This document shows, piece after piece, positions 17,487 through 59,899 of a DNA stretch of 64,000 bases. Below the pieces are notes generated by a model. The model saw nothing but the letters and a program-made list of their open reading frames with translations, did not search any database and had not been told where the DNA came from. Origin of the DNA: Lama glama (Eukaryota). Positions within the stretch are counted from its first letter, which is position 1, and each line of letters opens with the position of its first letter. The stretch lies in NCBI GenBank assembly GCA_028534125.1, contig CM052816.1, positions 806,001-870,000 of the forward strand. The letters run 5' to 3'. The position numbers and the translations under genes were made by a program.

Positions 17487-18534
17487 TTAAATATATAAAA
17501 AGCGTAATTCCACACATTTTACATAATTAAATAGCAAATTGTGTGTTGATTTATTTAAACCAGTGGGCAAAACAATTTGTTCTGCAGAAAATTTTTCTAT
17601 AAATTGATGGCACTTCCTTTGCATGTTTAGTAGAATATTGGTTACCCTTTTATCAGAACTGAGTAGCACCAAAGGACTAACCATAGTATAAGCATTGATC
17701 GCAAGTCTCAGGATACCCAGAAATACTGGGTCATATGCCCACAACAGGACTGAGGAGAATGAGGTGATAAAGGTCACACAGTACATGACCACAAAGAAAA
17801 TTACCAGCAGTAGAATGGTCCGGGTGACTTTCTTCCCTGGGGAGGCTCTTGGGGAAAGGTGGGTGCTGTGAAGACGCTGGGATCTCCTGTGATGTCTGAA
17901 CAACAGAATCACCATGTATACACTTGCAAGCAGCATGATTCCTACAAAGGAGGCATCTCTGAATATTGTCAGAATGAAGAACAGTCTCCTGATGATGGAG
18001 TCTTTGGCAGAAAGTGAGCAGTATTTACTGACATTCAGTAGATTGGCCTGGGTCAGATTGTAAGATGCAACAGTGGAGAAGATGAAGTTACTACTGAGAG
18101 AAAAATTGAGGGGCCATAGGAAGAAGAAAATGTGGATGATGCAACTTGTGGATTTCTGTTTAAATCTCACAAAACAGGAAGGGTTGGGGCTGATGGTGAT
18201 GGCCTGGAACACACTCAGGAGGCAGGTGGTACCAATGGAAAGGCCCCTCATAACTCTGTTCACAAAGAAGAATACCTTACATTTCAAGTCATTCTGAAAA
18301 TGCAGTGACTCAAACAGGCATGAAGACAACACAAACAGTACAGTGAGGAGCATCACTATATGGATGAAGGCCAAATGACAGGTGATCAGGTCACAGGGCC
18401 TGGGCCTGCGATCCAGGCTGAGGGTGAAGACGTGGAAGAAAAGGAGAAAAGCATTGGCTGAGACGCCAATGCCAGATTGGAAAAAAAAAGATATTTTTAA
18501 TAATAACGTAAGTGGAAGCTGATGTTAATGACAT
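17487..18534 (-). pseudogene. Vomeronasal type-1 receptor (V1R), near-intact with one lesion at the 5' end
   Basis: V1R motifs FQSGIGVSANAFLL, DLITCHLAFIH, NRVMRGLSIGTTCLLSVFQAITISP, YMVILLFRH, TRTILLLV and SPLVLLSSDKR. The frame is open from ACG at 18509 to the stop at 17487; upstream ATGs (18534, 18585) are one base out of frame across an A9 run at 18481-18489. Confidence 0.85.
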
Positions 18535-29417: not shown

Positions 29418-30262
29418 TTTTTTTTAATAAACTTGATTCTTAATTTTTTAAATAGTCTTGTTCTGCTGTCCTCTCCAGGGCTCTTTTATAACACAAGTTA
29501 AAAATCAACTCCTAGGTTTGTCCAGGGCCCCCAGCCGCCCTCTCCCAGCTTGCTTTTAACAAGAGAAGGGAACACGGGTTCAAGAGCTGGAGGGAGAGCC
29601 CAGGAAAGCCTGCAGGGGGAAGGAAGGTCTTAGTGGGGGGCTAATGCCTGGGGATGGGGGCAAGGGGGTGGCTGGGCTCCTTGTGGGAAGGGGCTGGGAT
29701 GGCCCCGCTGTGGAGCAGGGAGTGGCTGAGGACATACACGTCTTGCTCCTCAAGTCTCCTGGAAGTCCTGGCTCTTCATAAGCCATGACGGCGGGTGGGC
29801 TGAGGCCCCAGGTAGGAGATAATCGCCTGTTCTTCGGGAGGGGCTGAGGCAGCCCTCAGCACCCAGTTGAGACCAGAGCCTGGCGAGCAGGCTGGGTGGG
29901 CAGGCTGGAGGGGCTGGCTCTCCCATCACCAGCCCACTCCAGAGGAGGAGAGGGCTTCTGCCACAGGATGAGGACTGGCACCTGCAGAACCCCAGGGGGG
30001 TCAGCCACGCCCTCAGCAGCACTGGATACAGATGTGGACAAAGCATGGCTGGTGACAGTGAGGCCCCGTCCTTGGCAAGCAGGCGGATGTGGAGGAACCC
30101 TGGCTTCAGGCTGTTGAGAGGCAGTGTAAACTGGCCCACAAAGCCACTGGGGGAGGTGGACTCATAATCTTCTACCATGAACAGCACCAGTACCAGCACC
30201 AGCTCTGGAGCTGGCAACTGGAAGTGCAGGGTCTGCCCTCAGCGGGGTGAAGCCATTGTTGA
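29418..30262 (-). pseudogene. PLCD3: Processed retrocopy of phospholipase C delta-3 (C2-domain C-terminus plus 3'UTR), running into the N gap
   Basis: Minus-strand 'NNGF..QTLHFQLPAPEL..VEDYESTSPSGFVGQFTLPLNSLKPGFLHIRLLAKDGASLSPA..HICIQCC*' matches the PLCD3 C-terminus; uninterrupted across positions where I recall PLCD introns; frameshifts and a stop; short A-tail remnant near 29420. Confidence 0.8.
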
Positions 30263-30762
30263 NNNNNNNNNNNNNNNNNNNNNNNNNNNNNNNNNNNNNN
30301 NNNNNNNNNNNNNNNNNNNNNNNNNNNNNNNNNNNNNNNNNNNNNNNNNNNNNNNNNNNNNNNNNNNNNNNNNNNNNNNNNNNNNNNNNNNNNNNNNNNN
30401 NNNNNNNNNNNNNNNNNNNNNNNNNNNNNNNNNNNNNNNNNNNNNNNNNNNNNNNNNNNNNNNNNNNNNNNNNNNNNNNNNNNNNNNNNNNNNNNNNNNN
30501 NNNNNNNNNNNNNNNNNNNNNNNNNNNNNNNNNNNNNNNNNNNNNNNNNNNNNNNNNNNNNNNNNNNNNNNNNNNNNNNNNNNNNNNNNNNNNNNNNNNN
30601 NNNNNNNNNNNNNNNNNNNNNNNNNNNNNNNNNNNNNNNNNNNNNNNNNNNNNNNNNNNNNNNNNNNNNNNNNNNNNNNNNNNNNNNNNNNNNNNNNNNN
30701 NNNNNNNNNNNNNNNNNNNNNNNNNNNNNNNNNNNNNNNNNNNNNNNNNNNNNNNNNNNNNN
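30263..30762. other. Assembly gap (500 N)
   Basis: Run of exactly 500 N, typical of a scaffolding placeholder. Confidence 0.99.
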
Positions 30763-32150
30763 AGTTGTTTAAAAAGATCAATAAAATTGATAAACTTCTA
30801 GTCAGACTGACCAAAAACAAATATAAAAGACAAAAATTACCAAAAATGAATGAAACAAGGGCCATCAACACTGATTCTATGGATATTGAAAGGACAATAA
30901 AAGAATACTAAGAACTGTACACTCATGAGTTCAACAGCATAGGTGAAATGGACTTATTCCTTGAAAGACACAAACTACCAAAGCTCACAGGAAAATTAAG
31001 AGTGTGTAAGAATCCTGCGTCTATTAAAAAAAATTAAATTTGCCATTGAAATTCATCAAAAAATAGAAAGAAAACGCCAGGTCCAAATAGTTCCACTGGT
31101 GAATCCTACCAAACTTGTAAGGAAGATATACTTCTAATTCTACAAAGCTCTTCCAGAAGAGGAAGACACACTTTCCAACTCATTTCCTGAGGCCACTACA
31201 CTCTAATACCAAAACCTGACAAAGAAATGAAAATACAATGACAACAACAGAAAACCATAAAGAAGTAGCCCCCATGTACATAAGCATAAAAATACTCAAC
31301 TAAAGGTTACCTATGCAATTACAGCAATATATGAAAAAGATAATACATCATGACCTCGTGAGACTCACTCCACGAAAGCAAAGCCCTTTGAACACTGGAA
31401 AAATCTATCATAATTCACTAGATTAGCAGACTAAATAAGAAAAGCCATATGATCATATTAATAGATGCAGGAAAAAAACTTTCAATGATATTTACCATTC
31501 ATTCACAATACAAACTTACAGCAAACTAAGAAAACAACTTCCTTAGCCTAATAAAAACCAATTTGTATTAAAAAAAAAAACACCCCCCCAGCTAACATCA
31601 TTCTTATCAATGAAAGATTGAATGCTTTCCCATAAGATAAGGGACAAGACAAGGATATTCTCTCTCACCACTCTATATAATACATAGTATTGAAATTCTA
31701 GCTAGTGTAATAAGACAAGAAAAATAAAGATATACTTGTTGGAAAGGGGAAAAAAAAGAAAAGTCTCTGTTCAGAGGACTTAATATCTGCATTAAAAAAT
31801 CTGAACAAATCCACAAAAAGCTCCTAGAACTAATAAGTAAGTGGAAATGTCACGAAATACAAGTCCAGTATACAAAAGTATTCATATAATCCAGCAAAGA
31901 AAAATTGAAATTAAAAAAATTGTTTATAATAGCACTAAGTAAATAACATACTTAGGTATAAACATATAAACAGCAAAATATGAAGCGAGGCTATACACTA
32001 AAAACTACACAGCACTGATAAAAGAAAAAGAAGATTCAAATATAGGTAGAGACATATCATGCTCATGAATTGAAGACCTCAATAAGGTGATGGTATCAAT
32101 TTTCCCCAGTTTGTTCTATAGAGTCAAATCAATCCCAGTCAATCACAGCA
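30763..32150 (+). mobile_element. Degraded LINE-1 ORF2 (RT region)
   Basis: 'KINKIDKLLVRLTK' and RT-region DNA such as 'atatgatcatattaatagatgcaggaaaaa' and 'ggacaagacaaggatattctctctcacca'. Confidence 0.8.
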
Positions 32151-33796
32151 CTCAGAATGCCCTGCAGCCCCTTATGGGCTCAAAAATGGAGGTTAAGAGC
32201 ATGATATCAGGAGCCAGACTGCCTGGGCTCAAGTCCTAGCTCAGCTTCTTAACAGCTGCCTGAATAATCTCAATCTGCCTCACTTTCCCCATCTGTAAAA
32301 TGGCCATAATGATGGTCCTGCTTCAGAGGCGTATTGATTAGATTTACTGGTAGCTGTAAGTAAAGGGTTTAGACCAAGGCCTGCCTGGCCCATCCTCGGT
32401 TATTTAAGTGTTGGTGTTGGCTGTTTACTAGGATAAGTAATGTAACTCTACTTCCTTGCAGACTGTAGGCTTTCTACTAGCAGTGACCCTACCTGGTTTC
32501 TGCCTGTGCCAAGTATCTGATGGGGTGCCTAGGGCAGAGTAGACATCCCCACCCAGTTAAATGGATGGGTGGACCTGACTGCTTACACCTTTCAGTGACC
32601 CTACAGTGCTTTGAGGTTAGTATCCAGATTCCTTAGCTCGACACTCAAGACCCTCTGTGGTTAGGACACAGTAAACTGCCCAGCTACGTGGATTTCCCTT
32701 CCCCCATCAGCTTCCTCTGTTTCCCCACATGCCTCTCTACCTGCCTTAAGGTATACCTGACTTTCCCTGCCCAGAACTGCTTTTCATCCTGTACCTTCAC
32801 CTTTCTTGCCCTCTTTGTCAAGACTCAGGTCAACCTTTGTGAATATAACAATCATATCATAATGCAGACTTTGTAGGGTTTTTTCCCTTTACTTTTTATT
32901 TGACCAGACTTTCTGATGCTTACATCTTCCTCCGTTCTTTCCACCTGATGTGTTCTTTTGACAAAAGTAAAACTCAACAAACGTTGTCTTCTAGACCCAG
33001 ATCATTACAATCGGGCTTCTCCCCTGTGTTGGCCTGGCAGGACACCATGTGCATGGTGGCCAGGAGACAGCGCAGGGCTGCACCTCTGGCCCTCCTGGCC
33101 CCGCCTTCTGATGTGTAAATTGCTCCTCCTACCCACCCCAATCAGGATCACTTCATTATGAATGTTTTTTTCTTTTTTTTTTCTTATGAATTTTTGAATA
33201 TCAGAAAATGCCCAACTGAGAACTGTTATCCTGAACATGGGGGGCCTCAGTCAGAATTCAGAGGTTTGTGAACTTAGGGAAAATAACTTTTATTTTCACT
33301 AACTTCTAGTTGAAATCTAGCCATTCTCCCTGCGATGAAGGGAAGTGGCAAAACTCAGTTAACAGGACCTGTGCCTCGGTCCCCAACGGGAACCACAGGT
33401 GTTTCCGAATCATATGACAGCTGTTGCAGACACAGTAACATTAGCTCCACCTGCTGGTTTCATAAGGTAGTTCTTTATTTTGTAGCGTAAACGGTGTATT
33501 TCACAGTCATCAACATGATTGGCTTTCCCCGCCCCCGACCCCCCCCCCATATTTTTCTTCCGAGGCCCAGCAGAGGGGGCCATTGAGGAGCGGCGTGAGA
33601 GCCCCGGGGGCGCTGCAGAGCCGCGGCCAAAGCCGGGCCAGAGCCTGAACCTCAAGCCAGCGCTGGGTCGCAGCTGCGGCGCCTCTGGGGGCGCTGAGCG
33701 CTCGCTCGCCACGGCCAGGCAAGGGACGCCTCCTGCGGTCGGCCGGCGGTCGGCGTTGGCATCAGGTCACTGGCCCCACAGCTGAAGAAGGACTGC

Positions 33797-33932
33797 ATGG
33801 GGACGGACGCCCCGGGGCAGCGCGAGAGGCTGGGGACCCGGGGCCCGCGGAGCCCTGGGAGCGCATCACCACGGCTGCGGCTGCTGCTGCTGCTGCTGCT
33901 GCTGCTGGGGCTGGTGCCGGAGGGCGCAGCAG
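33797..33932 (+). CDS. MHC-I-like exon 1 (signal peptide)
   Basis: [28 protein letters not shown] then G|GTAACA, a phase-1 donor, inside the CpG island. Confidence 0.8.
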
Positions 33933-36900
33933 GTAACAAGGCGGAGAGGCAGGGCGCCCAAAGTGGGCCCCCAATCGTCCCTCAGTCGTCCCCTAGGCGA
34001 GCCGAGCGCGGGTGGGGATGCGAGGGAGAGATCGGCCAAGAATGCGGAGGCCACTTCCGGATTTGGGGAGAGGATGGTGAATTGGGGGCGCTGGCCCAAG
34101 ATTGAGGGATCGCTGAGCCCCGGTTTGTCCCCTCCCGTTGAACCCCCGTGATCAGAGTGAGCGGCCCTGCGGGTGGGAATCCCCGGGGACTCAAGAAGCT
34201 GTGACCACCCCCCCAACACACACACACACCCTCCTCGCCCGGGCCCCAGCCGACGCCACAGTCCCCTGGGCCCCTCTGGAGGACGCCGCTCGCGCTCGGC
34301 TCCCAGGGCTGGGTGGGGTCCTCCAGGAAGGCCCTGGGGAAGCTCCGTGGGCGCAGGAATCTGCGCGCGGCCTGCACGGCCCCTGCCTGGGCACCTGCGC
34401 ACCGCTACAGGTCTCCCTGGCCCCTTGGCGGGGTTCTCTCGGGTTGTCCGGGGGGTCCCTTGTTGGGGTAGAGGGTGAGGAGGGGCAATGGGGATTTCTT
34501 TGACCTGGCCCGGAATTTCCATTCTTTCTCAGTTTCTGTTCCGTGCACCTGATTTCCGGTCCGCTCCCTCAGGGCACCGCCCATCCTGACCGCAAAGATG
34601 CCTGAATATTTATTAGCACAAGCAGGGAGGTGCCCACCATCATGGCAGTAATAATAGCTGATGTCCTTTATTCCAGGCTCTGTTCTAAGGGCCTCACGTA
34701 CCAGAACCATCTCGGCTCTCAGAACATCCACAATTTACAATTTACAGATTTAAAATAGGGCGCAGAGGGGACGCTAGGTGGCAGCACTGGGACCTAGAGT
34801 CGAAGTTCTTAACCTATTTGGACTTAGCCTTGGACTCGGTCTCAATGTTTTTAATATATAAAATGATATACATAGGTTTCCAAAGGAACCCAATTATGTT
34901 TCTATAAATCTATTAAAAATTTAACTAGAAATATAAATTTGTGATATGTAGTATTGTGCTTCTAAGTTAACACATTAAATAACGCATCAAATAACAATTC
35001 CCAGAATTTGAAAGCAGTAAGGGTAAAGTATATTTCCAGGTGTCTGCAGCAACTGTCGTGTGATTCGAAAACACCTATGGCTTCCAGCAGGGACCAAAAC
35101 ACAGGTTCTGCTAATTCTGCTGAGTTTTGTTGCCTCCATTCATCATGGGAGAATGGCCAAACTTCACCTAGACGTCATTGAAAATAAAAAGGTTATTTTT
35201 TCCCTCCAAGTTGAGGCTCCTGAACTCAACAGGATGCATCTATGGGAGGATTCAGCCCTCAGCTCCCCACGGGAAATACTTGAAGGAGAATCACCCTGGA
35301 TGTCTGGGCAGGAGATTGGGGAGAGAGTGGAAACAGGAATGGGGAAGAGTTTGGCCAACGTCCCTGGAACAGGGACCCCAGGCGAGTGGGCCACTGTGTC
35401 TCTGGGCCAAGACTGTTCCCACAGTCCCTGGGGAGGCTTCTTACAGCTCCTCCCTCAGGTGATACAGGGGCACACAGATCATTCCAGTTCTGCATGGCAG
35501 GTGTGGTCGTGGGTATGTGTGCAAAGCCCCCATCTCCTTATAAGGGGAATGGTCAGGGCTGGCCCAGGGGGACAGGTCCCCAAACCGAGGAGGAGGGAAG
35601 GAGTGGAGAGATGGTCCTGGGTGTGTACCAAACTGGTGACTAGGTTCTTGTCTCGCTGCAGAAAGAATTCAGAGATCAGATAGGGAAGGTCAAGAAAGTA
35701 AAGTGAGGATTTATTAAGGGATGGATAGCACATGCTCAACGGGAGAGTGGGCAGGCTCAGGTGAGTAGCTGCCCTGAGATTTTTTGGCAAGTTGGTTACA
35801 TAGATTGTAAAAATAAGTGGGCAGAATATTCATTGAAGAGGAAAGGGTTTGGAATCATATTCCCTGATTTTCATCCAAACTTCACTTTCCTAGAGGGAGG
35901 AGGGGTTTTTGTCCTTATTTTGTCTGGATTGGAAGTGTCATAGTGTCAGTGCATGGTGGGTTCTTCAAATCTGCAAGGCTAATTTTATTGTGATGAAGAC
36001 ATAATGAGCAAAAGGTTACATTCAGATGCTGGAGATTCCTGCCTTTTCCCACCTTTCTTTGTTGGCCTCCAGCCACTTAGCACCCCAAAATGTGTGACCA
36101 CTTAGCCCAGAGGTTCCTGCTTTTCTTTTTCTGCCCAGGGACCCCTGGTGCTTACATGATGTATGTTTTCCTGCATTTGGTCCGTACCCCTCCTTTCTGC
36201 CCAGTTCCTGCCGTTTGGCCAGTGTCCCCCTTTCTCTGCTCATTTCTAGCTATCTGCCTGCTCTAACAAGAGGAGAAGGCAGAACTAATTAGTGGCCTTT
36301 GGGATCTGTTAGAGACAGAGTAAGTAGAGACAGATGATTACAAAGCCAGTTACTACAGCAAAACTGGAATTAGGGGCTGGGAGGTAGAGAGCGGGGTGAG
36401 GGTTCTGGCCTGGGCACCTGGCTGGATGTACCTCTGGCCCTGAGACAGGAGCTCCATCAAGGGCAGGCTAGGAGAGGGACTGCAGAGGCCAGTCCTATGG
36501 AATATCAAGGGCCGTGACCCCTGAGACTGATTCTGGTCTTCCTCGACCCCTTCCCACCCTCCTTCTCCGGTGACTCTGCAGGAGGTACTTACTCTGCCTC
36601 CCTCTTCCTGCTTTCCAGCACAGGCTCATCTAAGCCATGGATTCAGGGTCTCCTCCTCGCCGTCATAGCCACGACTTTTCTCTGGCCCAGACCTTGCCCC
36701 TGACCTCCAGCCCTTAGGACCTGCCCCAACTTAGCCTCTCCCCACTTTCAGAAGGGGAAACAGAGGCACCGGGAGGCAACCTAGCCCTTTGTTTCCTCCT
36801 CAGACTCATCTCTTATATTTGCAGTTGTCCCTCGACCTTGGTTTGCCTGATCACACCACACTCTTTTTCACTCCAGTCTTGTGTTTTCACTCCATTTGCT

Positions 36901-39900
36901 AGTGTTTTTGCCAAGAGCAATTCTAAAACTTTAAAATCACCTCATCTGTCGATGAACATTTAGGTTGTTTCCATGTCTCAGCTACTGTATATAGTGCTGC
37001 TATGAACATTGAGGTGCATGTATCTTTTCAAATTAGAGTTCCCTCTAGATATATGCCCAGGAGTGGGGTTACTGGATCATAGGGTAAGTCCATTTTTGGT
37101 TTTTTGAGGAATCTCCATACTGTTTGCTATCATGGCTGCACCAAACTACATTCCCACCAACAGTGTAGGAGGGTTCCCTTTTCTCCACAACCTCTCTGGC
37201 ATTTATCGTTCATGGACTTTCGAATGATGGCCATTCTGACTGTTGTGAGGTGATACCTCATTGTAGTTTTGATTTGCACTTCTCTGATAATCAGGGGGAA
37301 AAATTTCTTCTGTATAGCACAGGGAACGATGTTCAATATCATGTAATAACATTTAATGAAAAAGAATAGGAGGGGAGGTTATAGCTCAAGTAGTAGAGCG
37401 CATGCTTAGCATACACAAGGTCATGGGTTCAATCCCCAGTACCTCCCCAAATAAATAAACCTAATTATCTCCCCCCACCCCCGCCAAAAAAAAAACATTT
37501 AAAAGAATATGAAAACGAACGTATGTATATGCGTGGGACATTATGCTGTACACCAGAAATTGACATATTGTGACTGACTGTACTTCAGTAAAAAATAAAT
37601 AAAATTATGTCAGAATCACCCAGAGGGCTTGTTGAACTACAGTAAGCTAGGCCTCACCCCCGAAGCTTCTGATTCTGGAGGTCTGGGCTGGGACTCAAGA
37701 TTTTTATTTCTGACAAGTTCTGTGAAGCTAATGCAGTGAGTCTTGGAACCACACTAGACTCACTAGCCTAGAATGTTCTTCCCTCCTCACCCACCCCACT
37801 CACCCACCCCACTGGTAGCTTACAGCTGGTGAGGTCTCCAGCTTTCAGCAAGATGGCTAACCTCAGCACCCTCCCCTGCTCCAGGGTGCTTCCCGTGCCT
37901 TGTACTTCCTGTACCCCAGCACTTGTCAGCCCCCACTTGCCTTACTGGATCTGCTTGTTTAACTGCTCAGTTGTCTCCTGCCCTGCCCAGGCCTGAGCTC
38001 CCTGGGGACTATGTCTGGTCTGTCTGTCTGTCTGTCTGCCCCTACCCACAGCCCCACCTGGCTCACTTATAGTAGATGCTCAATAGATGTTTGTCAAATG
38101 AGTAATATTGCAAGGGGAGGGGTGAGGGCTGGCACAGCCGAGCAGGTGGGCAGGGCAGGGCTGGGCAGGAGCCAGAAGTGCATGGGCTCTCCTCCTGGCA
38201 GCTCATGAGCATCACATGGGAAGTGGTTTCACTGCCTGCCAGTGTCCAGTCCTCCCTTACCCCCAACTAAATCCATGTCAATGGCAGGATTGTCAAAACT
38301 GCCAGGCGGTGTTGGGGCAGCCCGTGGAGAACGTCTGACAGAGGTGGAGGCGGCCCAGCCCTGGCTTCCCTTCCCTCTGAGTAGGAACAGTCAAGACCTA
38401 CCTCACCTGAAACTGATCTAAAAGAATAAAGTCTATTAAAAAAAAAAAAAAAAGACCTGCCTCACGCAAATGCAGTGAAAACACCATGGATCTGTTCTTG
38501 GAAAGCTCAGAAACCACGCCTGGCTCTGAGGCCCAGAACTCAGCCCTGCTGGCTTTGTGCCTACAGGCTGGAGAAGTTTCCAGTCACCCCTGAGGCAGGC
38601 CTCCACGTCCCTCTTCCCTTCCAACATGCCTCTCGCCATCATTCCATACTGTCTCTCCCAGTAGACACAAGAGTGTGTAAGATGTTTATGCCTTCGGATT
38701 CATACTTCTCTTTCCTATCTCCCCCCTTACAGAGACTCCCTGGGGGCTGCCCTTGGTGGCTGATGGCCCGGCTTCCAGGGCAAAGGTGGTGATGGCAGAG
38801 CTGGCCCACCTGGAGTTGGAAAACAAGCCATGGCCTAAAGGTAAGACTCTGCCTGCCTTGCTGAAGGAAGGGTAGGATGAAGGGGGCCAGGAGCGCCTAG
38901 GCTCAGGAGGCTGCGTCCAGAGTCTGGGAATCTGGTGGACTGTTCTGGGGTAGGGGAACTCTGCCAGGGCGGGGGACACAGAGGCCAGAGCCTCTGGAGG
39001 GTGTCCTGGGGACTGGGACCTGGCCTCCAGAGAGCTGGCCTCTCACTCAGGCATCTTTCCCCACCCCGCCCCTGACTCCAGCTCTCCCCTTCCCATGGCC
39101 ACCCCTCCCTTCAGAATAGGAAAGGACTAAGACTGAAAAGATGACGTCTCCATGCACTTCCTCCTTATGTTCATTATCTCATAAATGCTCCCGCTCCGTG
39201 GAGCATGTCAGTTAATTGCCTCCACTTACAGGTGAGGAAACCAAGGCCTGGAGCTGTGAAATAGCTTCCCGAAGGCCACACAGCTAGGGACTGGCAGTGC
39301 TACATGGATTGTGGGGGAGGTGCGGCAGGTGCAAAAAAAGTCTCTGGGGTAGGGGCGGTGAGGGGTGAGAAAGGGGCTGGCTCCTCCCTCCATGACCACA
39401 GGTCAGAGGAAGAGGGCGGCTGTGCTTACGAGGGGGCAAGACTGCTTCCTTGTTGGGAGCTGGCCACATGCCTAGGAAGTGGTGGGGTTGGGGGGTGTGA
39501 TGACACAGGCTCTGAAGCAGCAATGGGCATGTGACAACTTCCTCAGGCCACGTCATAGCAGGAGCAGATCCCCTGCCACCCACCATGTGGTCCCCGCTTC
39601 CCCCTGCTGTGGTCCAACAGTGCCCGGCACTGACCCCATCCTGGCAGGGATGGCCTCCCTCAGCTTCTTTTGTTAACTCAGGGCTGGAGCCTGAGGCATA
39701 ATTACCCCTCCTGGGTCCAGTGAGCAAGTATAAGTCTAGGCCCAGCTGAGGCCGTCCTCCTGAGGCAGCAGAAGGGCAGGGCAGTGTGTGAGCTGGGTCT
39801 CAGGACCACCTGGTGGGCAGAGCAGAGAGCACTGGGATTTTCAGGGAGGGAGAGACGACAGGCCCCTCACTGCGTACATGGGAGGCAGTGTTGCCAGAGA

Positions 39901-42900
39901 GTAGGTTCTTGTCTCATCCCAGAAAGAATCCACAGATGAGTTATGGAGGTCAAGAAAGCAAAGCCAGGATTTGTTCAGCGATAGTACACTCTCAAGGGGA
40001 GAGCAGGCAGACTCAGGTGAGTAGCTGCCCTGGGTTTCTTTGGCAAGCTGGTTATATGGGGTGTAAAAATGAGTGAGCAGAAAATTCACTGGGTAGGGAG
40101 GGGTTTGGGGTTGTATTTCCTGATTTTGTCCTTATTTATTTTTGACCAGAAGTGTTATGGCATCAGTGCATGATGGGTACTTTTCTTTTTTCTTCTTTCT
40201 TTTCTTTTTCAAAATCATTTTTATTTATTTATGTATGTATTTTATAATATCATATTTTAAAATTGAAGTATAGTTGATATATAATATTATGTTACAGGTA
40301 TACAATATAGTGATTAACAAGTTTTTAAAGGTTATACTCCATTTATAGTTACTATAAAATATTGCCTATATATCCCATGTTGTACAATACAGCCTTGTAG
40401 CTTATTTTATGCCTGATAATTTGTACCTCTTAATCCTCCACCTCCATCCTGCCCCTTCCCCTTCCCTCTCCCCACTGGTAACCACCCATTCCTTCTCCAC
40501 ATCTTCTTTCCTGTTACAGTCACTAGTTTGTTTTAGATTCCGCACGTAAGTTGTATCTTACAGTATTTGTCTTTCTCTGTCTGACTTACCTCACTTAGCA
40601 TAATGCCCTCCCAGTCCATCCATGCTGTATACCAGAAACTAATATAACATTTTAAATCAACTGTACTTCACTTTAAAAGCAAACAACCAACCAACTCATT
40701 TAAAATATGGGCAGAAGAACTGAACAGACATTTTTCCAAAAGAGGAAATGCAGACGGTCCACAGGAGCATGAGAAGTTGCTCCCTCCCGCCATCCTTCTC
40801 TCTCCCTCCTTCTCTCTCTCTCTCTCTCCCCCTGTCTCTGTCTCAGGGCAGCAGCAGCCATGACCTTCAGGGCTCACAGGTTTGAACTGACCACCAAACT
40901 CACCAGACCTAGTGGGCTGTATTTGTTTCCTGTAACTGCTGTAACAGGTGACCACAACTTGGTGGCTTGAAACAGCACGCCTTTATTCTCTCACAGTCCT
41001 GGTGGTCAGAAGTCCAAAATGCGTTCTGTTGGTGGATACGGTGGACTGGTACTAGGGCAGTGAAAGAATTTACCAAATACAAAGGGAAGTTTAAGAACAA
41101 AGGAAAGTTTCAGATATCATGCTACAAACAGCAGCGGGCCACATAGATGAGCAGGGCCTGGGTGAGGTATTAGGAGACTGGCTGAGAGAGGGTGAATGTG
41201 CGGGGTCTTTTATTGGGGGCTGGGGGCTGTGAACCAAGGCATAGGGGCTGTGTGATCAGTTCGCGCACAGGAGCCTGATTGGTTGTTAGTGAGGTAAGCG
41301 TTGTCAGGGGCTCCTCTGAATAATGGGATTTACGACTCCGATAAGGGCAGGATGCCTACGGCATAGTGAGACTAGCTACTTCTTGGGGCAGTTAGGTTTT
41401 TTAGGGTAGACACGCATCAGTGGAAGATGTTTTTTATCTCAAAGAAATGCAGGTATTCGAAGGGTCCTACAGTGAGGAGTGAGGGTTAAGGGTGCCAGTT
41501 CTCCAGGCACATGGAGAGCCCAGAAGTGAGGGTTTTATTTTATCTTATTTTTTAATTTAAGTATAGTCAGTTTACAATGTTGTGTCAATTTCTGTCGTAC
41601 AGCATAATGTTTCAGTCATACATACACGTATTCATTTTCATATTCTTTTTCGTTATAGGTTACTACAAGATATTGAATATAGTTTCCTGTGCTGTACAGT
41701 AGAAACTTGTTTATCAGTTTTGTATGTAGTAGTTAGTATCTGCACATGTTGAACTCCCAGTTTATCCCTTCCCGCCCTCTTCCCCCTCTGGTAATCGTAA
41801 GTTTGTTTTCTATGTCTGTGAGTCTGTTTCTGTTTTGTAAATAACTTCATTGGTCTTTTTTTTAGATTCCACATAAAAGTGATCTCATATGGTATTTTTC
41901 TTCCCTTTCTGGCTTACTTCACTTAGAATGACGATCTCCAGGTCCATCCTTCTATGGATTTCAGAGCGGCTTCCGAGAGCGCCATTCTGAGAGCAACAGC
42001 TGGCTCCACAGGTTTCACTGGGCTGAAACCAAGGTGCCAGCAGGGCTAGCTCCCTAAAGAGGCCCTAAGGGAGAATCTGTTTGCCTGCTTTTTCCAGCTT
42101 CTAGAGCTGCGTTTCTTGGCTGATGCTGCCTTCCTGCATCTTTCTCTGCTCCATCTCCACATCACCTTCTCTGACGGTCATAGACTCGCCCTCTGCCTCC
42201 CTTTTCTAAGGATACATTTAGCACCTGCCTAGACAATCAAGGGTAATCTCACCAGCTCAAGAGCCTTAATTTAATCTGCAAAACCCTTGTGACCATATAA
42301 GGTAACTTTCAGAGGTTCCGGGGTGGGGGGCGGGGGGGCTTTTTATTCAGCCTATCACACTGTGCTTCCTTAGCTGTGGTGAGGGAGACAGGACAGGTAG
42401 CCCAGCTTGCATGCCTTCCCCACCACCCAGGAGGCCCCGCAGCCACCCAAGGACACAGGCTCTCTGCCCTACCTCACATCCAGGGCAGGTGGAGCTGCAG
42501 CAGATCAGAGCCAAGGAGCGGGTGGGTCACCTTGACACAGAAACCAAACCATAACCTCAGTTCCCCCAACACCTGCATGCCCGTTCACAGCTGCCAGCAC
42601 CCCACAATGACCTTGACCTCAATGGTTTGCAAGGAAACAGCACCGCGAGAGAGATCCCAGTCATTTCCTAGGAGACCCACGCCAGCCCTTCACTCTGACC
42701 CCTCTGGCCTCCCATGACGGGTCTCTCCAGCCATCAGAAGAGAGCACCTCTTCCCTCAGCTTAGAAAAAGACAGCAAGCCCTGAGAGAATCTGGGCTGCC
42801 CTCTTTCTAGTGATGCCTTTGAATGCTATACTTGGCCTTGCCTGTTGCGACCCCTCTGAGGGACATCAGGCCAAAGTCAAGAGGGCTTTCTGGAGGAAGG

Positions 42901-45900
42901 GACACATGACTGCAACCCGAGGTATTAGGAGACTGGCTGAGAGAAGACAGGGGAGTGCTTAGGGCAGAAGAAACAGCAGGTGCAGAGGCCTGGGCAGAGT
43001 TTGGTGTGGTCACAAGTAACAAGGAAGCAATAAACAGAGAGCTGTTGAGTGTAGAGATATGTTCGACTCCTTCTTGAACATTTGAATATTCAACCATTGA
43101 GCACCTACTATGTGCCAGAAGCTGTGCTGGGGAAAGAGAACAATCCTATAGGAGTCCCTGCCCTTAGGGAGCTGACCTTGCAGAGGAGAGACAGCCCGTT
43201 AATAAGACAAACAAGCAAAGTGCATACTCTCTAGGAAGTGTAGTCAGTGCCCTTGAGAAAAATAACACAGAGAATGGAGTGCTGGAGGGTAAAAACTTCT
43301 GAGCAAAAACTGTTTTAAAAACTAGATAAGGGAGTAAGCCAGGGATATCACTGAGAAATGTGGGCTGAGCTTTCTAAGATATAGCATTTGTTTTTTGAGT
43401 TTTTTTAGTTTTATGTTTTATTGAAGTGTAGTTGATTTACAATGTTAGTTTCAGGTGTACAGCAAAGTGATTCAGTTATACATATACATATATATATATA
43501 CACACACACATATATTTTCAGATTCTTTTCTATTATAGCTTATTATACGAAATTGAACATAGTTCCCTGTGCTATGCAGTAGGTCCTTGATGTTTATCTG
43601 TTTTATATATAGCAGTGTGTATCTGTTAATCCCAAACTCCTAATTTATCCCTCCCCTCCTTTCTCCTTTGGTAACCACAGTTTGTTTTCTATGTCTGTGA
43701 GTCTGTTTCTGGTTTGTAAATAAAGTCTGTATCTTTTTGACTTCCACATATAAGTGATATCAAATGATATCTGTCTTTTCTCTGTCTGACCTAATATGAT
43801 GATCTCTAGGTCCATCCACATTGCTGCAAATGGCATTATTTCATTCTTTTTTATGGCTTAGTAGTATTCCATTGTGTATCCATTCATTTATTGGTGGACA
43901 TTTAGGTTGTTTCCATGTCTTGGCTATTTTAAATAGCAGCATTTGTTTTAGTAGCTTGAGTCAGGACTGGCTGCTAAATAGGTTCATCTCCAGCACCAAG
44001 TTGAATCGATGAGTTGGCGCTTTTGGAGACATGGTAGAGCGGCAGCATTTGGACTTAAAGAGAAAAGAGATCGACTAGCAATGTCTGCTGTGGGAGCAGG
44101 AGGGAGTAGGGAATGGAGTCAAGATGCCATTAGCTGGCAGCAATGGTTCAAGCTAAGAATGGTGGCCAACCTTTTTCAGGCATCTCTGGGAAATGAATAA
44201 TCCCACATAAATTAAGCCTCCAAACAACGAACTTTTAAAAAATCACATCCTTTTTAATTGTGGAATGGGAAACCAGACAAATCACACTTATTAGAGAGGA
44301 GTATAAAGTGTGGGTAAGTAGGCCCTGAGAGAGGGGCTGAGAAACTTTCTAGGAGTAACGTTCATAAACCTTAGTACCTAAACTTTGGCGTCAATGTGTG
44401 ACTGATTCTGTCTATATTTAAACTCTTCGGATGCACTTATTTTTTTTTAACTGAAATTCCCAGTTCTTGCTCTTGGTGATATTGAGTTCTTTGGATGAGT
44501 TTCCACTGCTGACCCCACCCAGCACGCGGACCGCCCCCAGGGCAGACCCTGGCCGGGCTTGTGAGCCTGAGATCTGTTTGTGTTTCCACAGGGACGCACT
44601 CCCTCATCTACCACTATCTGGCCCTATCAGAGCCAGGCCCCGGCCTCCCGCAGTTTCTGGCTGTAGGCTACGTGGACGACCAGCCCTTCATCCAGTATGA
44701 CAGTCGTGTGGGCCGGGCCGAGCCCCAGGCCCCTTGGGCGGCATCCATGGATGCCCAGTACTGGGAGAGGGAGACCAAGAAGCAGAGGATCTGGGCGGAG
44801 GTGCAGCAGGTGGAGATGTGGACGGTGATGGGCTACCACAATCAGAGCAGCGGTGCGTTGCGCAGGCTCCTTCCTCCTGCCCCCCATTCTTCCTTCACAC
44901 TCTGCACGCTCATCCTCCGGACAGCCGTGCCTGTCTGCTTGGGGACAGAGGCGACTCTGCGGAGCCCTTCAGAGGGTGTGGCACGCTGCGGATACGTGGC
45001 TCTTCTCAGTCTCCTTCCCCTACTACCAGGCGGGGGCCACGGGGCCTTCAGTATCAGCTGTGGCTTTAGCGGCCAGTGCAGCAGGCGTCCACGGGAGCTG
45101 GGGGCCCATGATGCCTCCCGCTCCCCCCATGCTTCCCCGTTGGCTACGCAGAGTTCAGGACCTCAGACTGGGAGGTGCTTTTCCCTACCTCTCCCCCCCC
45201 CCACTCTCCAGTCACACCGGCTTCCACCCCCAGGCCCTCAGATGCCATCTCAGGCTCCCCATTTCAGCAAGAGAGAGCTCACACCCACTGCCAGAGCTAC
45301 TGCTAATTCTAAATGAAATGCTTGTGGAACACAGCACCCTCCCGCTCTGTGCCTGGACACCCAAATGACCAGACTACAAGCCTCAGGTCCCCAGAGGCTT
45401 CAGAAAGAGTAGGTATGGAGGACCAAGACTGGGAAGGGCTGTGCGTCAGCCCAGCGCTCCCAGCATAAGCATCGCATGACTTAGGCTGACCACTGAGGAT
45501 ATTTTACCCCCCTAAGTAGTGTGGCATATAAAATCAGGATGTGTGTAATCATGAACTACAGTGTTCACCTCCCATGAGAGCCCCAGCAGGTGTCTCAACC
45601 CAGGCTGCTTACAAAAATTACCTGAGAGAATTTTTTTAAAATGCTGACACTCTGTTCCCCCCAGTCTTTGGAGGCCCCTGTGGGTGGTGGGCTTATCCCT
45701 GGCTCTCAGGGACTCAGCTCCCCCGGCCCCCCACTCACCTCAGCCTTCTTACCTGTACGCACAGGTATGCACAGCGCTCAGCGCATGTTCGGCTGTGAGA
45801 TCCAGGAAGACGGCCGCTTCAGCAGCTTCTGGCAGTTTGGCTATGATGGGCAGGACCATCTGTCGCTGGACCTGGAATCTCTGAGCTGGGTGTCTGCCGT

Positions 45901-47508
45901 GCCTGTGGCCGTGCGGACCAAGCGCTGGTGGGAGACAGAGCGCTGCTATGCCGAGTATGACAAGGCCTATCTGGAAGGCGTCTGCCTCCCCTACCTGCTC
46001 AGATACCTGGAACTGGGGGGCCAGAGATTCAGCAGGAGAGGTAAGGCCCAGCCTGTGGCCATGCAGGTTGGCCCCATGCTCCCATTCTCGAGAGCCATCC
46101 CATTTGACAGAGAAGCCTTTGGGGAGTGAGGAGGCAGGCTGTGTCCCCCCGGGTTCAGATAAGCCCACTGGGGCCCAGAAAGATGGCCAACTAGCCACGG
46201 CTCCTTCCTACAGAGCAGGAAGAAAACCCAGGCCTCAGGCCCTTACTCCGGGTGAGATGGAGTTGGGGGTTCTGGAGTCTCTCCTTTCCTAGTTTGTGTT
46301 GAGTTAAAAACTGGAAGATGCTGCAGGAGACCAAGACTGAGCATGAAGGATGGGCAGAGAGCAGCCACTGACCAGCCTTCGTCCCTCCCCTTCTTCCTGC
46401 AGAGCCACCGACAGTGCGGGTGACACGGCACTCGGCCCAGGACGGGGGCACCACACTGAGGTGCTGGGCCCTGGGCTTCTATCCACAAGACATCTCGCTG
46501 ACCTGGTGGCTGGATGAGAAGCAGCTCATCTCAAAGACTGAATATGTGGACATACGCCCCAGTGGGGACGGCACCTATCAGACGTGGGTGGCCGTGCAGG
46601 TGCCAGCCAGAGAGGAGAGCCGGTACACCTGCCATGTACAGCATTCCAGCCTGAACCACACACTGACTGGGTCCTGGGGTGAGGAGCTAGGCTTGGCCGG
46701 GAGCGGGTGAGGAGAGGCAAGAGAGGGTCCCAGGGCACCCAGGGGCAGTCCCATGGTCTGAGGGGGTGCCCCCTTTTCTCTGTCTTTCTTAGAACGGCCC
46801 TCCCATCATACGCACTTTGCCATAATCATCTCCCTCATCCTGGTCGTGCTGGTGGCTGGCGTGATCTTGATCAACTGCCTTTACGGTAGGGGGGGAAGAA
46901 AAAAAGGAGTGGGAGGGGCTCTGGCTGGTCCAGCCTTCTAGGGAAGAATGCTGTGCTCCCATCCCTGCTCCTCCTGGGGAGCAGCAACTACTGCTGAGGT
47001 CCTGCCCCCACCTTGGAAAAGCCCGAATATCCCCACCCTACAGCTGCACACCACCCTGAGGACCCTGCCGATGTCACAGTCAGGGGACACCACTGGACCT
47101 GACCTTGGAAAGGGCCCAGAGGTGGAGAGGGAGAGGGAAGGGGGACCCCAGAACCCCACCTCTACCCACCACCCACCTCGTCTCTTGTGTTCTTTTTCTC
47201 CACAGCCAGGAACAGGGAACATTACGAACAAGCCACAGGTGATTGTGGGATGGGCTGGCTGGGGAGAGGGAGCCCCAGGTGTTCCCAAGCATGACTGAGA
47301 TGCCTTAGAATTAAGGATGGCCATGAGGTCGGTGCTCTCCCTGGCCTCGGCTCCCTGCCCCATCCTTCCATCCTGGAGCAAGGCAGATGCTCCAGGTAGG
47401 GAGCATCCTGGGGTGCCACCACCTGGGTTTGGGGGAGGGCAAGGGAGCTGGCTGGGGTCACCTCTCTCCTTTCTCCCTGCAGGTGGAGAGGACCCCCATA
47501 ATTCCTAA
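33797..47508 (+). CDS. Nonclassical MHC class I-like heavy chain gene (candidate MHX lineage). CDS join: 33797-33932, [38733-38840], 44592-44852, 45765-46040, 46403-46678, 46793-46885, 47206-47238, 47483-47508; 402 aa with the bracketed exon, 366 aa without
   Basis: All junctions are GT-AG and phase 1, with no stops or frameshifts. Exon sizes 261/276/276/33 nt match class I architecture, and alpha1, alpha2, alpha3, TM and tail motifs are present. Confidence 0.9.
33881..33907 (+). repeat. (CTG)9 coding repeat, poly-Leu core of the signal peptide
   Basis: Nine consecutive in-frame CTG codons. Confidence 0.95.
35624..36268 (-). mobile_element. Solo ERV LTR, intronic in the MHC-I-like gene
   Basis: TG..CA termini; TTTATT at ~35710 (minus-strand polyA signal); a related partial copy lies at 39889-40182. 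Confidence 0.65.
36945..37605. mobile_element. L1 3' fragments in opposite orientations with a nested Vic-1-like SINE (37371-37495)
   Basis: Minus ORF 37130..37342 '[21 protein letters not shown]'; plus-strand L1 tail from ~37295; SINE flanked by AAAAGAATA. Confidence 0.75.
38733..38840 (+). CDS. Candidate extra exon of the MHC-I-like gene (36-aa segment between leader and alpha1)
   Basis: Acceptor ttctctttcctatctccccccttacAG, donor AAG|GTAAGA, 108 nt. Only the phase-1 frame is open ([36 protein letters not shown]); both other frames hit TGA. Confidence 0.65.
39889..40182 (-). mobile_element. Partial ERV LTR related to the 35624-36268 copy, followed by an antisense L1 tail
   Basis: Shares 'taggttcttgtctc..cagaaagaat..ggtcaagaaag..ctcaggtgagtagctgccctg' with the upstream LTR. 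Confidence 0.65.
40918..42359 (-). mobile_element. MLT1-like MaLR LTR interrupted by a younger LTR (~41027-41998), itself interrupted by an L1 tail (~41533-41950)
   Basis: MLT1-like ends 'tgtatttgtttcctgtaactgctgtaaca..cttggtggcttgaaacag' and '..ttattcagcctatcaca'; inner TGTTG..CAACA element. Confidence 0.65.
44592..44852 (+). CDS. MHC-I-like alpha1 exon
   Basis: ccac[59 protein letters not shown]|GTgcgt; N86-type glycan site. Confidence 0.97.
45765..46040 (+). CDS. MHC-I-like alpha2 exon
   Basis: [40 protein letters not shown]101/C164 pair; 276 nt; GTAAGG donor. Confidence 0.97.
46403..46678 (+). CDS. MHC-I-like alpha3 (C1-set Ig) exon
   Basis: [47 protein letters not shown]; 276 nt; GTGAGG donor. 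Confidence 0.97.
46793..46885 (+). CDS. MHC-I-like transmembrane exon
   Basis: Pyrimidine tract plus [40 protein letters not shown] donor. Confidence 0.88.
47206..47238 (+). CDS. MHC-I-like cytoplasmic exon (33 nt, YxxA motif)
   Basis: tctttttctccac[13 protein letters not shown]|GTgatt; same length and Tyr motif as classical class I exon 6 (YSQA). Confidence 0.8.
47483..47508 (+). CDS. MHC-I-like terminal coding exon
   Basis: ctctctcctttctccctgc[10 protein letters not shown] with TAA at 47506-47508. Confidence 0.72.
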
Positions 47509-49168
47509 AGCCCAGCAAAAGAGGGGCCACTTACCTCATCTGCTGACAGAAGTTCACCGTCAGAGATCAAGGAGACGTTTTGTAGGGTGTTTGGGGGCCT
47601 GAAGGCCCCCTGCACCAGTGATCTGACTGTGAAGGGCCCACCCCGCCCCCAAAACTGAGCCCTCCTCACCCCCATCAGCCCTGTTACAAGCAACCTTTGC
47701 CACAAAGATGGTTTTGCCATCTTCCTGAAGTCCTTTTAAAATTCTAATTATTTCCTGTTGGAGGATGCGGGGAAGAGGGCAGTAATGATTCCTCAGATGG
47801 GTTTACACTTGACAATTTGCAAAATGATTTCTTGTTGCTTGTAAATCCCATTTGAGCCTCTCAGGCACCCTGTGAGTCTGGCAACGTTACCCTCATCCCC
47901 ACTTCCCCAACGTAAAAACCAAGGGTCTGAGCCTTCAGGGAAGAACCACAACAATTGTCAGAGTTACGGGGGCCGGCAGCATCCATCTGCTTGCATCAGG
48001 AAGAACTGGCCAAATGCCCGCCTCTTTTATAAGTGTGTTCTTGTATGTATGTATGTATGTATGTATGTGTGATCCCCTCTTGTAAAGACTATAGAGTGTT
48101 GGGGGTATGGGGGGTGGGTGAGGGTGAGAGTGGGTGGGTATATGTGTATGTGAGGGTGAGCGGGTGTGTTAGGGTGGAGATGTGTGTGTGTGTTTGAGGG
48201 TGAGGGGATATGTTGTGTGTGGGTATCCTTGTGTCTGAGGAGAAGCTCAGAGGGTCAGGTGCCCAGAAGCCAGTTAGTTAGTCCCAGGCAGCTGGAGGAT
48301 GGGAAGCAACACAAGCCTTATTTTCCATTATTTCCTGTCCTTTCGAATGGTCTGAATTTTTACAATAAGTATACATTACGTTTACAGTGAGGGAAAGACC
48401 CATTTTCGCTGTGACCTGGGGGAATGCTTGTGGAGGGTGGGTCTGGAGAAGGCCCTGCCTCCCCTTCACATTTTCAGGGCAGCAGAAAGCTCTTGTCTCT
48501 TCTGTGAACAAGGATCTCCCTGGGACCACACACGTTTGTTGATTCCACCAGCAGTTTGAGTCTCATAGCCACGTGATGTGCTCCGGACTGGGACGCCAGA
48601 GCCCTGGCAGGTAGAGGGAACACTCCACGGTCATAAAGGACCCAAGGCCAGTCCCCTCCCAGGCCACCCTCTGCCTCCTCTTCAGCTGACCCAAAGATGT
48701 GACATGTCGCCTCCTATGGGGACTTTGGAAACCTCCATGTCTGCAGCCCTGGGAGGCCCTGAGCTCGAGGATGTGGACGGCTGTGATACTAGAAAAAGAT
48801 TTAGCCTGTCCTAACAGCCTGCAGGACCTCAGCAGTGAGCTCAGAATTATCCGAGTGTACTGAAGATGTGTCTTAAATGTCTGAATTTCTCAGTGATGTC
48901 AACATGTTCCACATATGCTGTCCTAACCCCTAGCAGGATTCTAAGCACTTTTTTATGTACTAAGCAGTTCAACCCTCACAGTACACCTGTGCGGGGGAAT
49001 GAATAATCCTGTTCTACAGGTGAGGAAACTGAGGCCCAGGGTCCCACAGCTGGTTCACACCGGAGCTGGGGTGTGAGGCCAGGCAGTCTGGCTGCCATCT
49101 GGGCACCTCACCACTGTATCAAAAGCCTCAGTGACAACCATGCTGCTGTGTAAATGGCCAAGTAAGTA

Positions 49169-55559: not shown

Positions 55560-57155
<1,596 letters not shown>

Positions 57156-59899
57156 GTGAGCAGCATGAGGGAATATGGGGATTTGAAGGGAGTGGAGAAG
57201 CAACAAGGGGAGCTGGGAGAGATGGGCACTGGGTACTTGAACCTCTTATTTTTAAGGGATTAGGGGCATGGTGGAGAGAGATGGGCATATATGGACAAAG
57301 GAGACACTGGCTGAGGCAACTGGCTTCCCCAGAGGAAGCTGAGCAAAGATATTAAGACAGCAACCTGGAGCTGCCCACTGTTGTTACTCCCTTTCAGTCT
57401 GCCCAAGTATAAGGGGGTGTAAGTGACAGACCCCCTAGTACTTAAATTTCCTTCTGGTGTGTGTCCTGAATCCATACCTGACGAGGATACTAGGAACTGT
57501 AATACACAGGAATGGAAAACCACAGTACTTGTAGATGATAGACATTTAGGAGTTCAGCACAAGCAATGGCAAAACAGAGAACTAGTATTAGACCAAAATG
57601 CCAGGTGTGAGTCTTGGACTAATAAGAGCAACTGGACACACCTCCCTCCTAAAGTCCGGGGTTGCTTCCTCACTTTCAGTAGGGTCCATTTCCCCTGTAG
57701 AGTAAGGCAGAAGACATAAACATCCTTGATGGATCAGAATAAACCTCCTGTCCTGATCACTTTCCTTTCCTGGTATTTTAACGTAGTGGAAGGAGTAAAG
57801 GATTTAGGATCAGATGACCTGGCTCTGCCATTTACTGTCTAATCCTGGGCAAGTCTTACCCTCTTAGCTCTACTTTTTCCCTAGGCTTGTTAAGACTGAA
57901 AGAGATCATATACATGAAAGTATTTTATAAACCATACGGCACTAAAGAGATGTTTGTTTCTTTGACTTTCTCCTAATTTCCTTTAATTTCTTTGGGTTCT
58001 GATTTGGTTAATGCCTTGCTTTCTAGCCTTGATCTGACTATTAGAGAAATATCTCAATGTGAAAAAGCCTAGGTGGATGTGACTCCTCAGGACCCAAGGA
58101 AGGAGAGGTTGTCTTCAGGCCTGTAAAATTCTTAATTGTATATTTAGTAGCAGCTGCTCATGACTCAGTAGTGCTTTACAGTTTATAAAATGTATTTTCT
58201 CATATTCTCCTACAGCAGTTTTCAAACTGTGGGTTTTGACCAATTAGTTGGCCATAAAATAAATGGGTCATGCCCCCAGCATTGTTTCTAAATGAAACAG
58301 AAAATAGCAGAATGCATGGGATCATAGTAAGGGTAAGTATTGTTTTATGAAACTTTTAAATTATATGTACCCAGGTGTATACTTGGTCTCAAAGTAAAAT
58401 GTACTGCTTACTCTGAGTTGCAGTCAAAACACAAACAGAGCACAGCTCTGCAGGCATTATATATTAGATATGATCATCACCCCCATTTCGCAGTCACTAT
58501 TGGTAAGTGCACAGTTAAGACACATATCTTAACTACAAACCACTGCGAAGTCCATCATATTAATATGACTATAAGGATAAACTTTAGTACCCCAGGGTCA
58601 TAATTAAGTTGGCCTTATGTTAGAAAATATGCCCTATTCTTCTGGGTTTTAGGACTTTGAAGCTGAGGGGAGGAGGTGTCCTTCCATTCCTCTGCTAGAA
58701 TTTTCTAGAAAGGATTTTGAAACCAAGATTTTAATTGAATGTCAATTTAGACAAGAGAAAAGAGGTAGTTTCTTCATGAGGAGAGTCCAGAAACACCCAC
58801 TTGGAACTGGAGATGTTACACATTAGGAAGGTATAAACAGCAAACCAAGTTAAATAGAGGATAATCCTTTCCAAAATACATAATATTTAAAAGAAAATAA
58901 AACTTTTATTTTCAGACATATACCAGAACTTAGGTATATGGTGCTGCCCAATACAGGAATTACACTGAAGATGTAAATATTGTTATTTTGTCAAAGTTAT
59001 CTATAAACCGATAGTAACTGACATCTTCTTTCATTCTTTATACATAGTTCATGGTTTTGTCACTTCCTTTCATTGGTAAACAGACATGCACGTTATAGTA
59101 TCATGATTCAGAATCTTACTAAACAAAACTCTCACCAGAATAGTTAACACTATATGGAACTATTTTTGTATAAAGGTTTATTTAATATGCTATACATTAT
59201 CCACTGCACAGTTCTGGTTACATTAAGTTCTCTCTTGTCAGCTACTAATTCAACAAAATTTTAATCTGCTTTGGAGGTGACCAAGGTTTTTTGGTTTTAG
59301 GGACTATGCTGTTTCAGGGAGTTGTTACTCATGGGCTCAAGGAATAGGTCAGTGATTTTCAGGAACAGGAAAGAACGGCATTCTCGCCCCCCTACACACA
59401 CACACATTATATCAGCATTGCAGGGTATGGGGAGAGTTACAGTTTATAAAATCAGATTTAGTATTATAATATTAAAAAGAAAAAATAGTTAATTTTTCTT
59501 AATATAGAAAATCAATTGGAAAGAATTCCTTGGCTGGTAGGAACACAGAGAAAGTAGAATAAGAAGCATTCAGAGTAAAGCCTATAATCAATGAGGTGTA
59601 TGACAGGTGGGGTACCCAGAGATGGTGGTGGTGGATATGGTGCCATTTATACTGCTATTTCTGTTGCATATCCAGGACAGTTATATTGTTTTGAGGTCAA
59701 TGTTTTTAAAGTTTAGTTTTGTATAAGAAGAGGCTTTTTAGCTCCAAAAACTTTTACTTATTTACATCTTCCATTTTATCCATCCCATGAGTTAGAGTTC
59801 TCCTTGGCTCTTCAAGCTAGAATCAGAGGATTATGAAAGTAAGATCATTTAGACTGAGTGAGGGCACCATTAAATGGTGTCAGGTTTTAGGCGGCAGAC

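Follow-up and report, generated by a model that had tools for sequence, protein, structure and literature searches.

The window analyzed here, a 64,000-nucleotide (nt) stretch of Lama glama DNA (assembly GCA_028534125.1, contig CM052816.1, 806,001-870,000, forward strand; all positions are counted within the window), carries on its + strand a gene resembling class I of the major histocompatibility complex (MHC), with a 108-nt segment at 38733-38840 lying between its leader and alpha1 exons. From sequence comparison we consider it very probable that this segment forms the second exon of a non-classical MHC class I-like gene conserved among Eutheria, seen here in its camelid orthologue. Alignment of the protein P0001 to the window by tblastn showed the gene to be intact from the leader through alpha3. 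Exon 1 (33797-33932, 136 nt) holds the start codon and signal peptide, ends in phase 1 at the donor CAG/GTAACA, is 91% identical to P0001 across 47 residues and is spanned by a CpG island (GC content 0.68, observed/expected CpG 0.68). It is followed by intron 1 (33933-38732, 4,800 nt), by exon 2 (38733-38840, 108 nt, phase 1 to phase 1), which encodes a putative 36-residue N-terminal extension and matches P0001 residues 48-84 with 100% identity, and by intron 2 (38841-44591, 5,751 nt), with interspersed repeats inside both introns. Exon 3 (44592-44852, 261 nt, acceptor ...tttccacag) encodes alpha1, and the Pfam MHC_I profile begins here; exon 4 (45765-46040, 276 nt) encodes alpha2 and exon 5 (46403-46678, 276 nt) the immunoglobulin (Ig) C1-set domain of alpha3. 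All three alpha exons have AG/GT borders, are in phase 1, and are 97-98% identical to P0001, in which Pfam placed PF00129 (MHC_I) at residues 84-257 (E value 2.1e-51, profile positions 1-177 of 179) and PF07654 (C1-set, alpha3) at residues 276-346 (E value 1.3e-13). The transmembrane (TM) and cytoplasmic exons, with approximate boundaries from comparison with the V. pacos model P0133, run from 46780 to 47508, to the stop after ...GGEDPHNS, and a long hydrophobic helix is predicted after alpha3 (H360-392; H318-350 in the rabbit-type model) ahead of this tail. In the canonical class I layout, as given in passages of PMC4509613, alpha1 is exon 2 and comes straight after the signal-peptide exon; the extra 108-nt exon departs from that layout, without excluding family membership.

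The leader-to-alpha1 interval (33933-44591) measures 10,659 nt, and it was here that the original prediction placed an in-frame exon of 108 nt, whose length, coordinates and 36 residues were all reproduced on the window sequence, as was the claim that it is open in phase 1 only (offsets 0 and 1 hold one and two stops). Its acceptor reads ...ttctctttcctatctccccccttacag, with 16 of 18 pyrimidines and then CAG, and its donor, AAG/gtaaga, agrees at 7 of 8 positions with the donor consensus AG/GTAAGT, in line with the pyrimidine tract plus AG and the AAG/GTAAGA donor first described. That the track of open reading frames (ORFs) misses the segment was likewise borne out, the 64-residue ORF that spans it (38681-38872) being a stop-to-stop frame that an ATG-started list with a 60-residue floor omits. 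We enumerated every acceptor/donor pair 45-400 nt apart within the interval: with strict cut-offs (a donor score ≥7 and a pyrimidine fraction ≥0.75) 15 pairs remained, among which the segment was the sole in-frame open candidate, and with loose cut-offs 4 of 100 pairs were open candidates, this segment being one of them. Because of these four candidates exon status is not decided by the sequence of the interval, which by itself suggests a good candidate and stops short of proof. An origin of the segment from a repeat or transposon was considered and rejected, as no intron self-BLAST match overlaps 38.4-39.2 kilobases (kb). Two pairs of diverged direct repeats (35638-35871 versus 39899-40127, 79% identity; 41535-41949 versus 43400-43817, 71% identity) lie within the introns on either side of exon 2; these are probably interspersed elements, several with more copies in the window. 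The word share of the 44500-47600 region came to 0.23-0.32 in 14 RNA or possibly RNA runs and to 0.84-0.90 in six unlabelled runs, both values being neutral with regard to exon 2.

To follow the segment in other species, the 43-residue in-frame translation of 38720-38848 was searched against longer annotated proteins. It was found between leader and alpha1, at 100% identity, in an annotated protein of Camelus dromedarius, and in the same place in two whale proteins, from Balaenoptera physalus (81%) and Eubalaena glacialis (86%). C. bactrianus, C. ferus and Vicugna pacos are represented by RefSeq models in the 90% cluster of the dromedary protein, each of which contains the segment, and the V. 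pacos model is closest to the window exons; older camelid models begin at an internal Met of exon 2. A search with dromedary residues 1-180 returned 117 proteins, the first 84 of which (E ≤ 5e-31) are orthologues of one gene, followed by turtle, bird, lizard and marsupial class I proteins at ≤52% identity and by a small number of further models of this eutherian gene that are partial or skip an exon. Classified by script on their N-terminal join, 46 of these 84 cluster representatives have the complete segment directly joined to alpha1, P0027 has it ahead of alpha1 with 7 extra residues (47 in total), and another 19 begin within the segment and then run on into alpha1, so that exon 2, complete or partial, is joined to alpha1 in 66 of the 84. 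Named models bearing the segment come from Laurasiatheria, Euarchontoglires (squirrel, tree shrew, rabbit, hare), Afrotheria and Xenarthra, and orthologues occur in rabbit and 40-odd other named eutherian genera. Contrary to the description of the exon as hidden in the original prediction, it is thus already present in the RefSeq models of four camelids and dozens of other mammals, and this spread indicates that it is a genuine and ancient part of the gene. Twelve representatives derive solely from public-run assemblies; 10 of the 12 join exon 2 to alpha1 and none joins the leader to alpha1. Those 10 contigs measure 1.4-2.3 kb with the entire ORF of 350-460 residues inside, and because the whole ORF fits in that length they must represent spliced cDNA, or else retrocopies, which is less likely. 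Rabbit forms were seen on 6 and 12 contigs and a pangolin form on 5.

No primate or Muridae orthologue was listed among the 84 representatives, and the search being word-seeded, this is weak evidence of absence. The gene is probably of the MHX lineage: MHX was reportedly described by Boudinot et al. in PNAS in 2016 as a highly conserved non-classical class I-like (MH1Like) gene of rabbit and many mammals that was lost in primates and Muridae, and is said to co-occur with a conserved TRAV41 segment. Presence in rabbit and widely among Eutheria, with no primate or murid listed, would fit that description. Searches of the literature yielded no accessible source that deals with MHX, with a class I-like gene adjoining TRIM41, RACK1 or TRIM52, or with an extra exon in this gene. 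The next-best matches after the eutherian orthologues are mostly class I proteins of turtle, bird and lizard (41-52% identity) with a few from marsupials, and one alpha1 motif is common to the window gene and these matches; eutherian classical class I is absent from these next-best matches, in which the word-seeded candidate list may have introduced a search bias. Four models from other species (P0090, P0101, P0123 and P0124) join exon 2 to alpha2, skipping the 261-nt alpha1 exon with the frame kept.

Conservation of the 36 residues was measured at the protein level, using a 42-sequence alignment for the region identities and, for exon 2, the 34 sequences with a complete segment. Mean pairwise identity was 0.762 in exon 2, compared to 0.775 in alpha1, 0.797 in alpha2 and 0.723 in alpha3, and to 0.489 in the leader and 0.399 in the TM/tail region, so that by this measure the exon 2 codons are as constrained as the alpha domains and lie well above the leader. 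Nine positions (E48, P50, W51, L53, P54, A64, K65, W81 and P82) show no variation in any of the 34-42 sequences, and M68, A69 and L71 reach 98% conservation. Length differs in just 2 of 35 sequences, through in-frame insertions (5 and 10 residues) that share one site behind V-A-D; the conservation of the frame, which the original prediction had put forward as a check, holds with no frame-breaking change in the 34-42 sequences. Judged from the alignment, the segment falls into three parts: an N-terminal motif that is invariant, then a hinge, then a conserved stretch, predicted as helix, that ends in W-P before alpha1. The last residue before alpha1 varies across the 42 sequences (G 25, R 11, T 3, A 2, K 1), and no conserved dibasic or furin-type motif was found across them at the boundary between segment and alpha1. 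Searched by phmmer against 1.84 billion representatives, the 36 residues matched 19 proteins, all from the same family and some of them ORFs read into the intron; no Pfam family was matched by the 36 residues, and no listed PDB alignment extends upstream of query residue 79, leaving residues 48-78 with no PDB counterpart among those listed.

Given this pattern of constraint, we propose how the extension might be used. The -3/-1 rule would place signal-peptidase cleavage at the boundary of exons 1 and 2 (...A-A/E), about six residues beyond the end of the hydrophobic leader core, and the mature chain would then start with the motif E-[S/T]-P-W-G-L-P-x-V-A-D, invariant among the orthologues, followed by a short hinge tolerant of insertions, a helix (A-K-V-V-M-A-E-L-A...) and the invariant W-P before residue 1 of alpha1. 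The helical half would pack near the alpha1/alpha2 platform, and the free N-terminal motif would act on the groove of its own chain, as ligand or lid, or else be an epitope that a partner recognizes. We lean toward the view that maturation leaves the extension in place, as a functional element tethered to the chain and in contact with the alpha1/alpha2 body; the lack of a conserved basic motif for processing ahead of alpha1 favors such retention. The original prediction is supported in part: cross-species conservation was the deciding evidence that a genuine in-frame exon stands between leader and alpha1, a mature chain with a 36-residue N-terminal extension would follow from the -3/-1 rule, and skipping of the exon would keep the frame, as the leader-to-alpha1 models among the orthologues illustrate. 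The amphipathic helix proposed there did not hold up as stated. AlphaFold2 does predict a helix, and its amphipathic character was rejected, as the best 14-residue hydrophobic moment (0.27) was reached by 1826 of 2000 shuffles.

Structure prediction gave a limited picture of the extension. With 77 sequences and a near-mature rabbit-type transcript, AlphaFold2 reached a mean predicted local distance difference test (pLDDT) score of 80.6, with the helix (residues 19-31) and the following K-P-W-P at 68-73; with 42 sequences and the full dromedary precursor the mean was 65. When residues 48-83 were docked onto 84-354 with ESMFold2, the score was 0.60 (0.59, 0.60 and 0.62 in the individual runs; best control 0.02), with at least 49% contact agreement between runs and a partner pLDDT of 38-39. 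In calibration of the docking, 51 of the 78 solved complexes reached the mark, and among 108 mismatched pairs 2 did so; scores at or below 0.60 comprised 5 of the 78 solved complexes and all 4 passing mismatches (of 180); the calibration covered neither peptides nor disordered chains, and no interface was reported.

Several observations weigh against a retained, docked extension or against the wider identification of the gene and its exon. In the dromedary precursor model the extension had a pLDDT of 33-51 (helix 60-72), and the invariant N-terminal motif fell below 50 in both AlphaFold2 models, because of which no docked position is supported; by the tool's own calibration the docking score amounts to weak support. 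The cleavage site is placed by the -3/-1 rule alone, and position -3 is variable (G, S, L, R and others). Leader and alpha1 are joined directly in 5 of the 84 representatives (Artibeus, Meles, Phyllostomus, Orycteropus and Ailuropoda), and exon skipping may accordingly occur, while 13 of the 84 have other N-termini, mostly translated intron just upstream of alpha1. Many RefSeq models are predictions that are able to spread by homology, and transcript support for exon 2 comes from assemblies of other species.

The same body of evidence bears on what else the segment could be. One alternative is that the frame is open by chance between flanks that resemble splice sites, or that the exon is an artefact of annotation passed between genomes by homology-based prediction; in its favor, three other open in-frame candidates were found in the same intron under loose thresholds, and many models are automated. 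However, intronic sequence does not remain open and 76% identical as protein across Eutheria, and the segment occurs in 66 of 84 representatives from all four eutherian superorders, is carried by independent transcript-length assemblies and combines a mean pairwise identity of 0.76 with a frame unbroken in 34-42 sequences; on these comparisons, this explanation is effectively refuted. It is also very improbable that the exon is mainly a skipped cassette, in which case the dominant mRNA would run from leader to alpha1 and inclusion of the 108 nt would be minor or regulatory. A symmetric exon (phase 1 to phase 1) whose loss leaves the frame intact is what such a cassette would look like, the 5 of 84 leader-to-alpha1 models are its expected product, and the exon 2-to-alpha2 joins of P0090, P0101, P0123 and P0124 show other in-frame skips in the family, but conservation on a par with the alpha domains, with nine invariant positions over ~100 million years, would be unexpected for a rarely translated exon, and the assembly-derived representatives include it in 10 of 12 cases and join leader to alpha1 in none.

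A third possibility accepts that the 36 residues are translated but has them removed as a propeptide, after aiding folding, beta2-microglobulin assembly or exit from the endoplasmic reticulum (ER), leaving a surface molecule that begins at alpha1. Strong conservation would suit an intramolecular chaperone equally well, both AlphaFold2 models show the extension with poor order, and the invariant W-P right before alpha1 could mark a processing site. Against this, the boundary is without a conserved dibasic or furin-type motif, the residue before alpha1 is variable, and we know of no member of the class I family with a propeptide; we regard removal as improbable.

Classical class I proteins (HLA-A/B/C, H-2, DLA-88) align end to end with alpha1-alpha3 of this gene (best E value 1.2e-87), and the PDB search returned 513 distinct sequences at E ≤ 1e-30. 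Shared with classical class I are the phase-1 alpha exons and the N86 glycosylation sequon, whereas alpha1 has 87 codons here compared to 90 in classical genes. Eight residues of classical class I contact the peptide termini (Y7, Y59, Y84, T143, K146, W147, Y159 and Y171), and Lys146 holds the C-terminal carboxylate of the peptide; in alignment to HLA-A2, seven of the eight (Y7, Y59, Y84, T143, W147, Y159, Y171) are kept and K146 is replaced by W. Classical class I genes are also highly polymorphic and situated in the MHC proper; the window represents one haplotype, in which the neighbors of the gene are an olfactory receptor, a V1R and a TRIM52-like RING gene. Rodent MILL genes are likewise said to have an extra exon between leader and alpha1, a statement made in the original prediction. 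The passages of the MILL2 structure paper on the N-terminus describe five disordered residues at the N-terminus that are specific to MILL, and MILL proteins are, according to passages of PMC6193965, anchored by glycosylphosphatidylinositol (GPI) and encoded close to the leukocyte receptor complex. Unlike the GPI-anchored MILL proteins, the gene described here has a predicted TM helix and cytoplasmic tail and stands beside a TRIM52-like gene, and its extension is 36 residues long and highly conserved. The phmmer search of the 1.84 billion representatives found no relatives of the segment outside its own family and no homologue of it in MILL, with no direct comparison made to MILL sequences.

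Engineered chimeras of peptide, beta2-microglobulin and HLA-A2 (6d7g, 7srk), in which an N-terminally tethered peptide pre-loads the groove, provide a parallel in concept only. They head the list of PDB matches through their HLA-A2 content; in principle the natural extension is long enough for such a tethered-peptide arrangement, and its entry into the groove is hypothetical. We set out, as a speculative and on present evidence unlikely form of the retained extension, that the N-terminal motif, exposed with a free amino end after signal-peptide removal, could be a genome-encoded tethered self-ligand filling its own groove, with hinge and helix as the linker, forming a natural 'single-chain peptide-MHC'. 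If true, this would account for the loss of Lys146 with the N-terminus-binding tyrosines kept, and for both the monomorphic-looking conservation of alpha1/alpha2 and a 100-million-year constraint on the extension. In species lacking other such systems, an innate-like receptor of T cells or natural killer (NK) cells could then have this complex as its fixed ligand.

The surroundings of the gene add to its description. Within exon 1, the poly-Leu core of the leader is a CTG repeat (33870-33910) whose length varies among camelid models, and the leader aligns to the dromedary model with a gap of 2 residues. Regex scans of 33100-33800 for interferon-stimulated response elements (ISRE), kappaB sites and X2 boxes yielded no more than a single ATTGG and a single CCAAT. 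An assembly gap of 500 N (30263-30769), the only long N run of the window, lies some 3 kb upstream of the leader exon and may hide features such as distal promoter elements. Further upstream are an olfactory-receptor frame (6996-7991, + strand, 332 residues; Pfam 7tm_4, E value 1.5e-49), an apparently intact V1R frame (17490-18524, - strand, 345 residues; nearly the whole PF03402 profile, E value 6.6e-85) and a 162-residue open frame with no Pfam match (29753-30238, - strand), which may resemble the C-terminal C2 region of phospholipase C and which may be a pseudogene fragment. Downstream, the gene is adjoined by a TRIM52-like RING gene with a RING exon that contains a long acidic insert (56233-56766, +), after which a B-box-like ORF, read by eye, lies within 56233-57260 on the same strand; reading the window's ORF list by eye, without a Pfam search, revealed no obvious SPRY-like ORF downstream of the RING exon. 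An initial assignment of this neighbor to TRIM41 was softened, as the dromedary fragment of the RING gene carries the TRIM52 name. The C. ferus model P0195 fuses the RING and class I-like genes, and elsewhere orthologues of the class I-like gene are misnamed RACK1 or TRIM52. According to passages of PMC8813856, TRIM41, TRIM7 and the RACK1 homologue map to the MHC in chicken and to chromosome 5 in human, and because of this shared placement it is a reasonable inference that the class I-like gene may be a relic of an ancestral MHC neighborhood.

For annotation, the exon has practical consequences: 19 of the 84 models start at an internal Met in exon 2, and several are fused to or named after the neighbors RACK1 and TRIM52. 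The gene is found in livestock, camelids, carnivores, bats and rabbits, and that no primate or murid orthologue was found here may explain our impression that it has been little studied. Class I and class I-like heavy chains normally start at alpha1. A 36-residue extension that has stayed nearly constant since the eutherian ancestor, and is most invariant at its N-terminus, would represent an unusual architecture for the class I fold.

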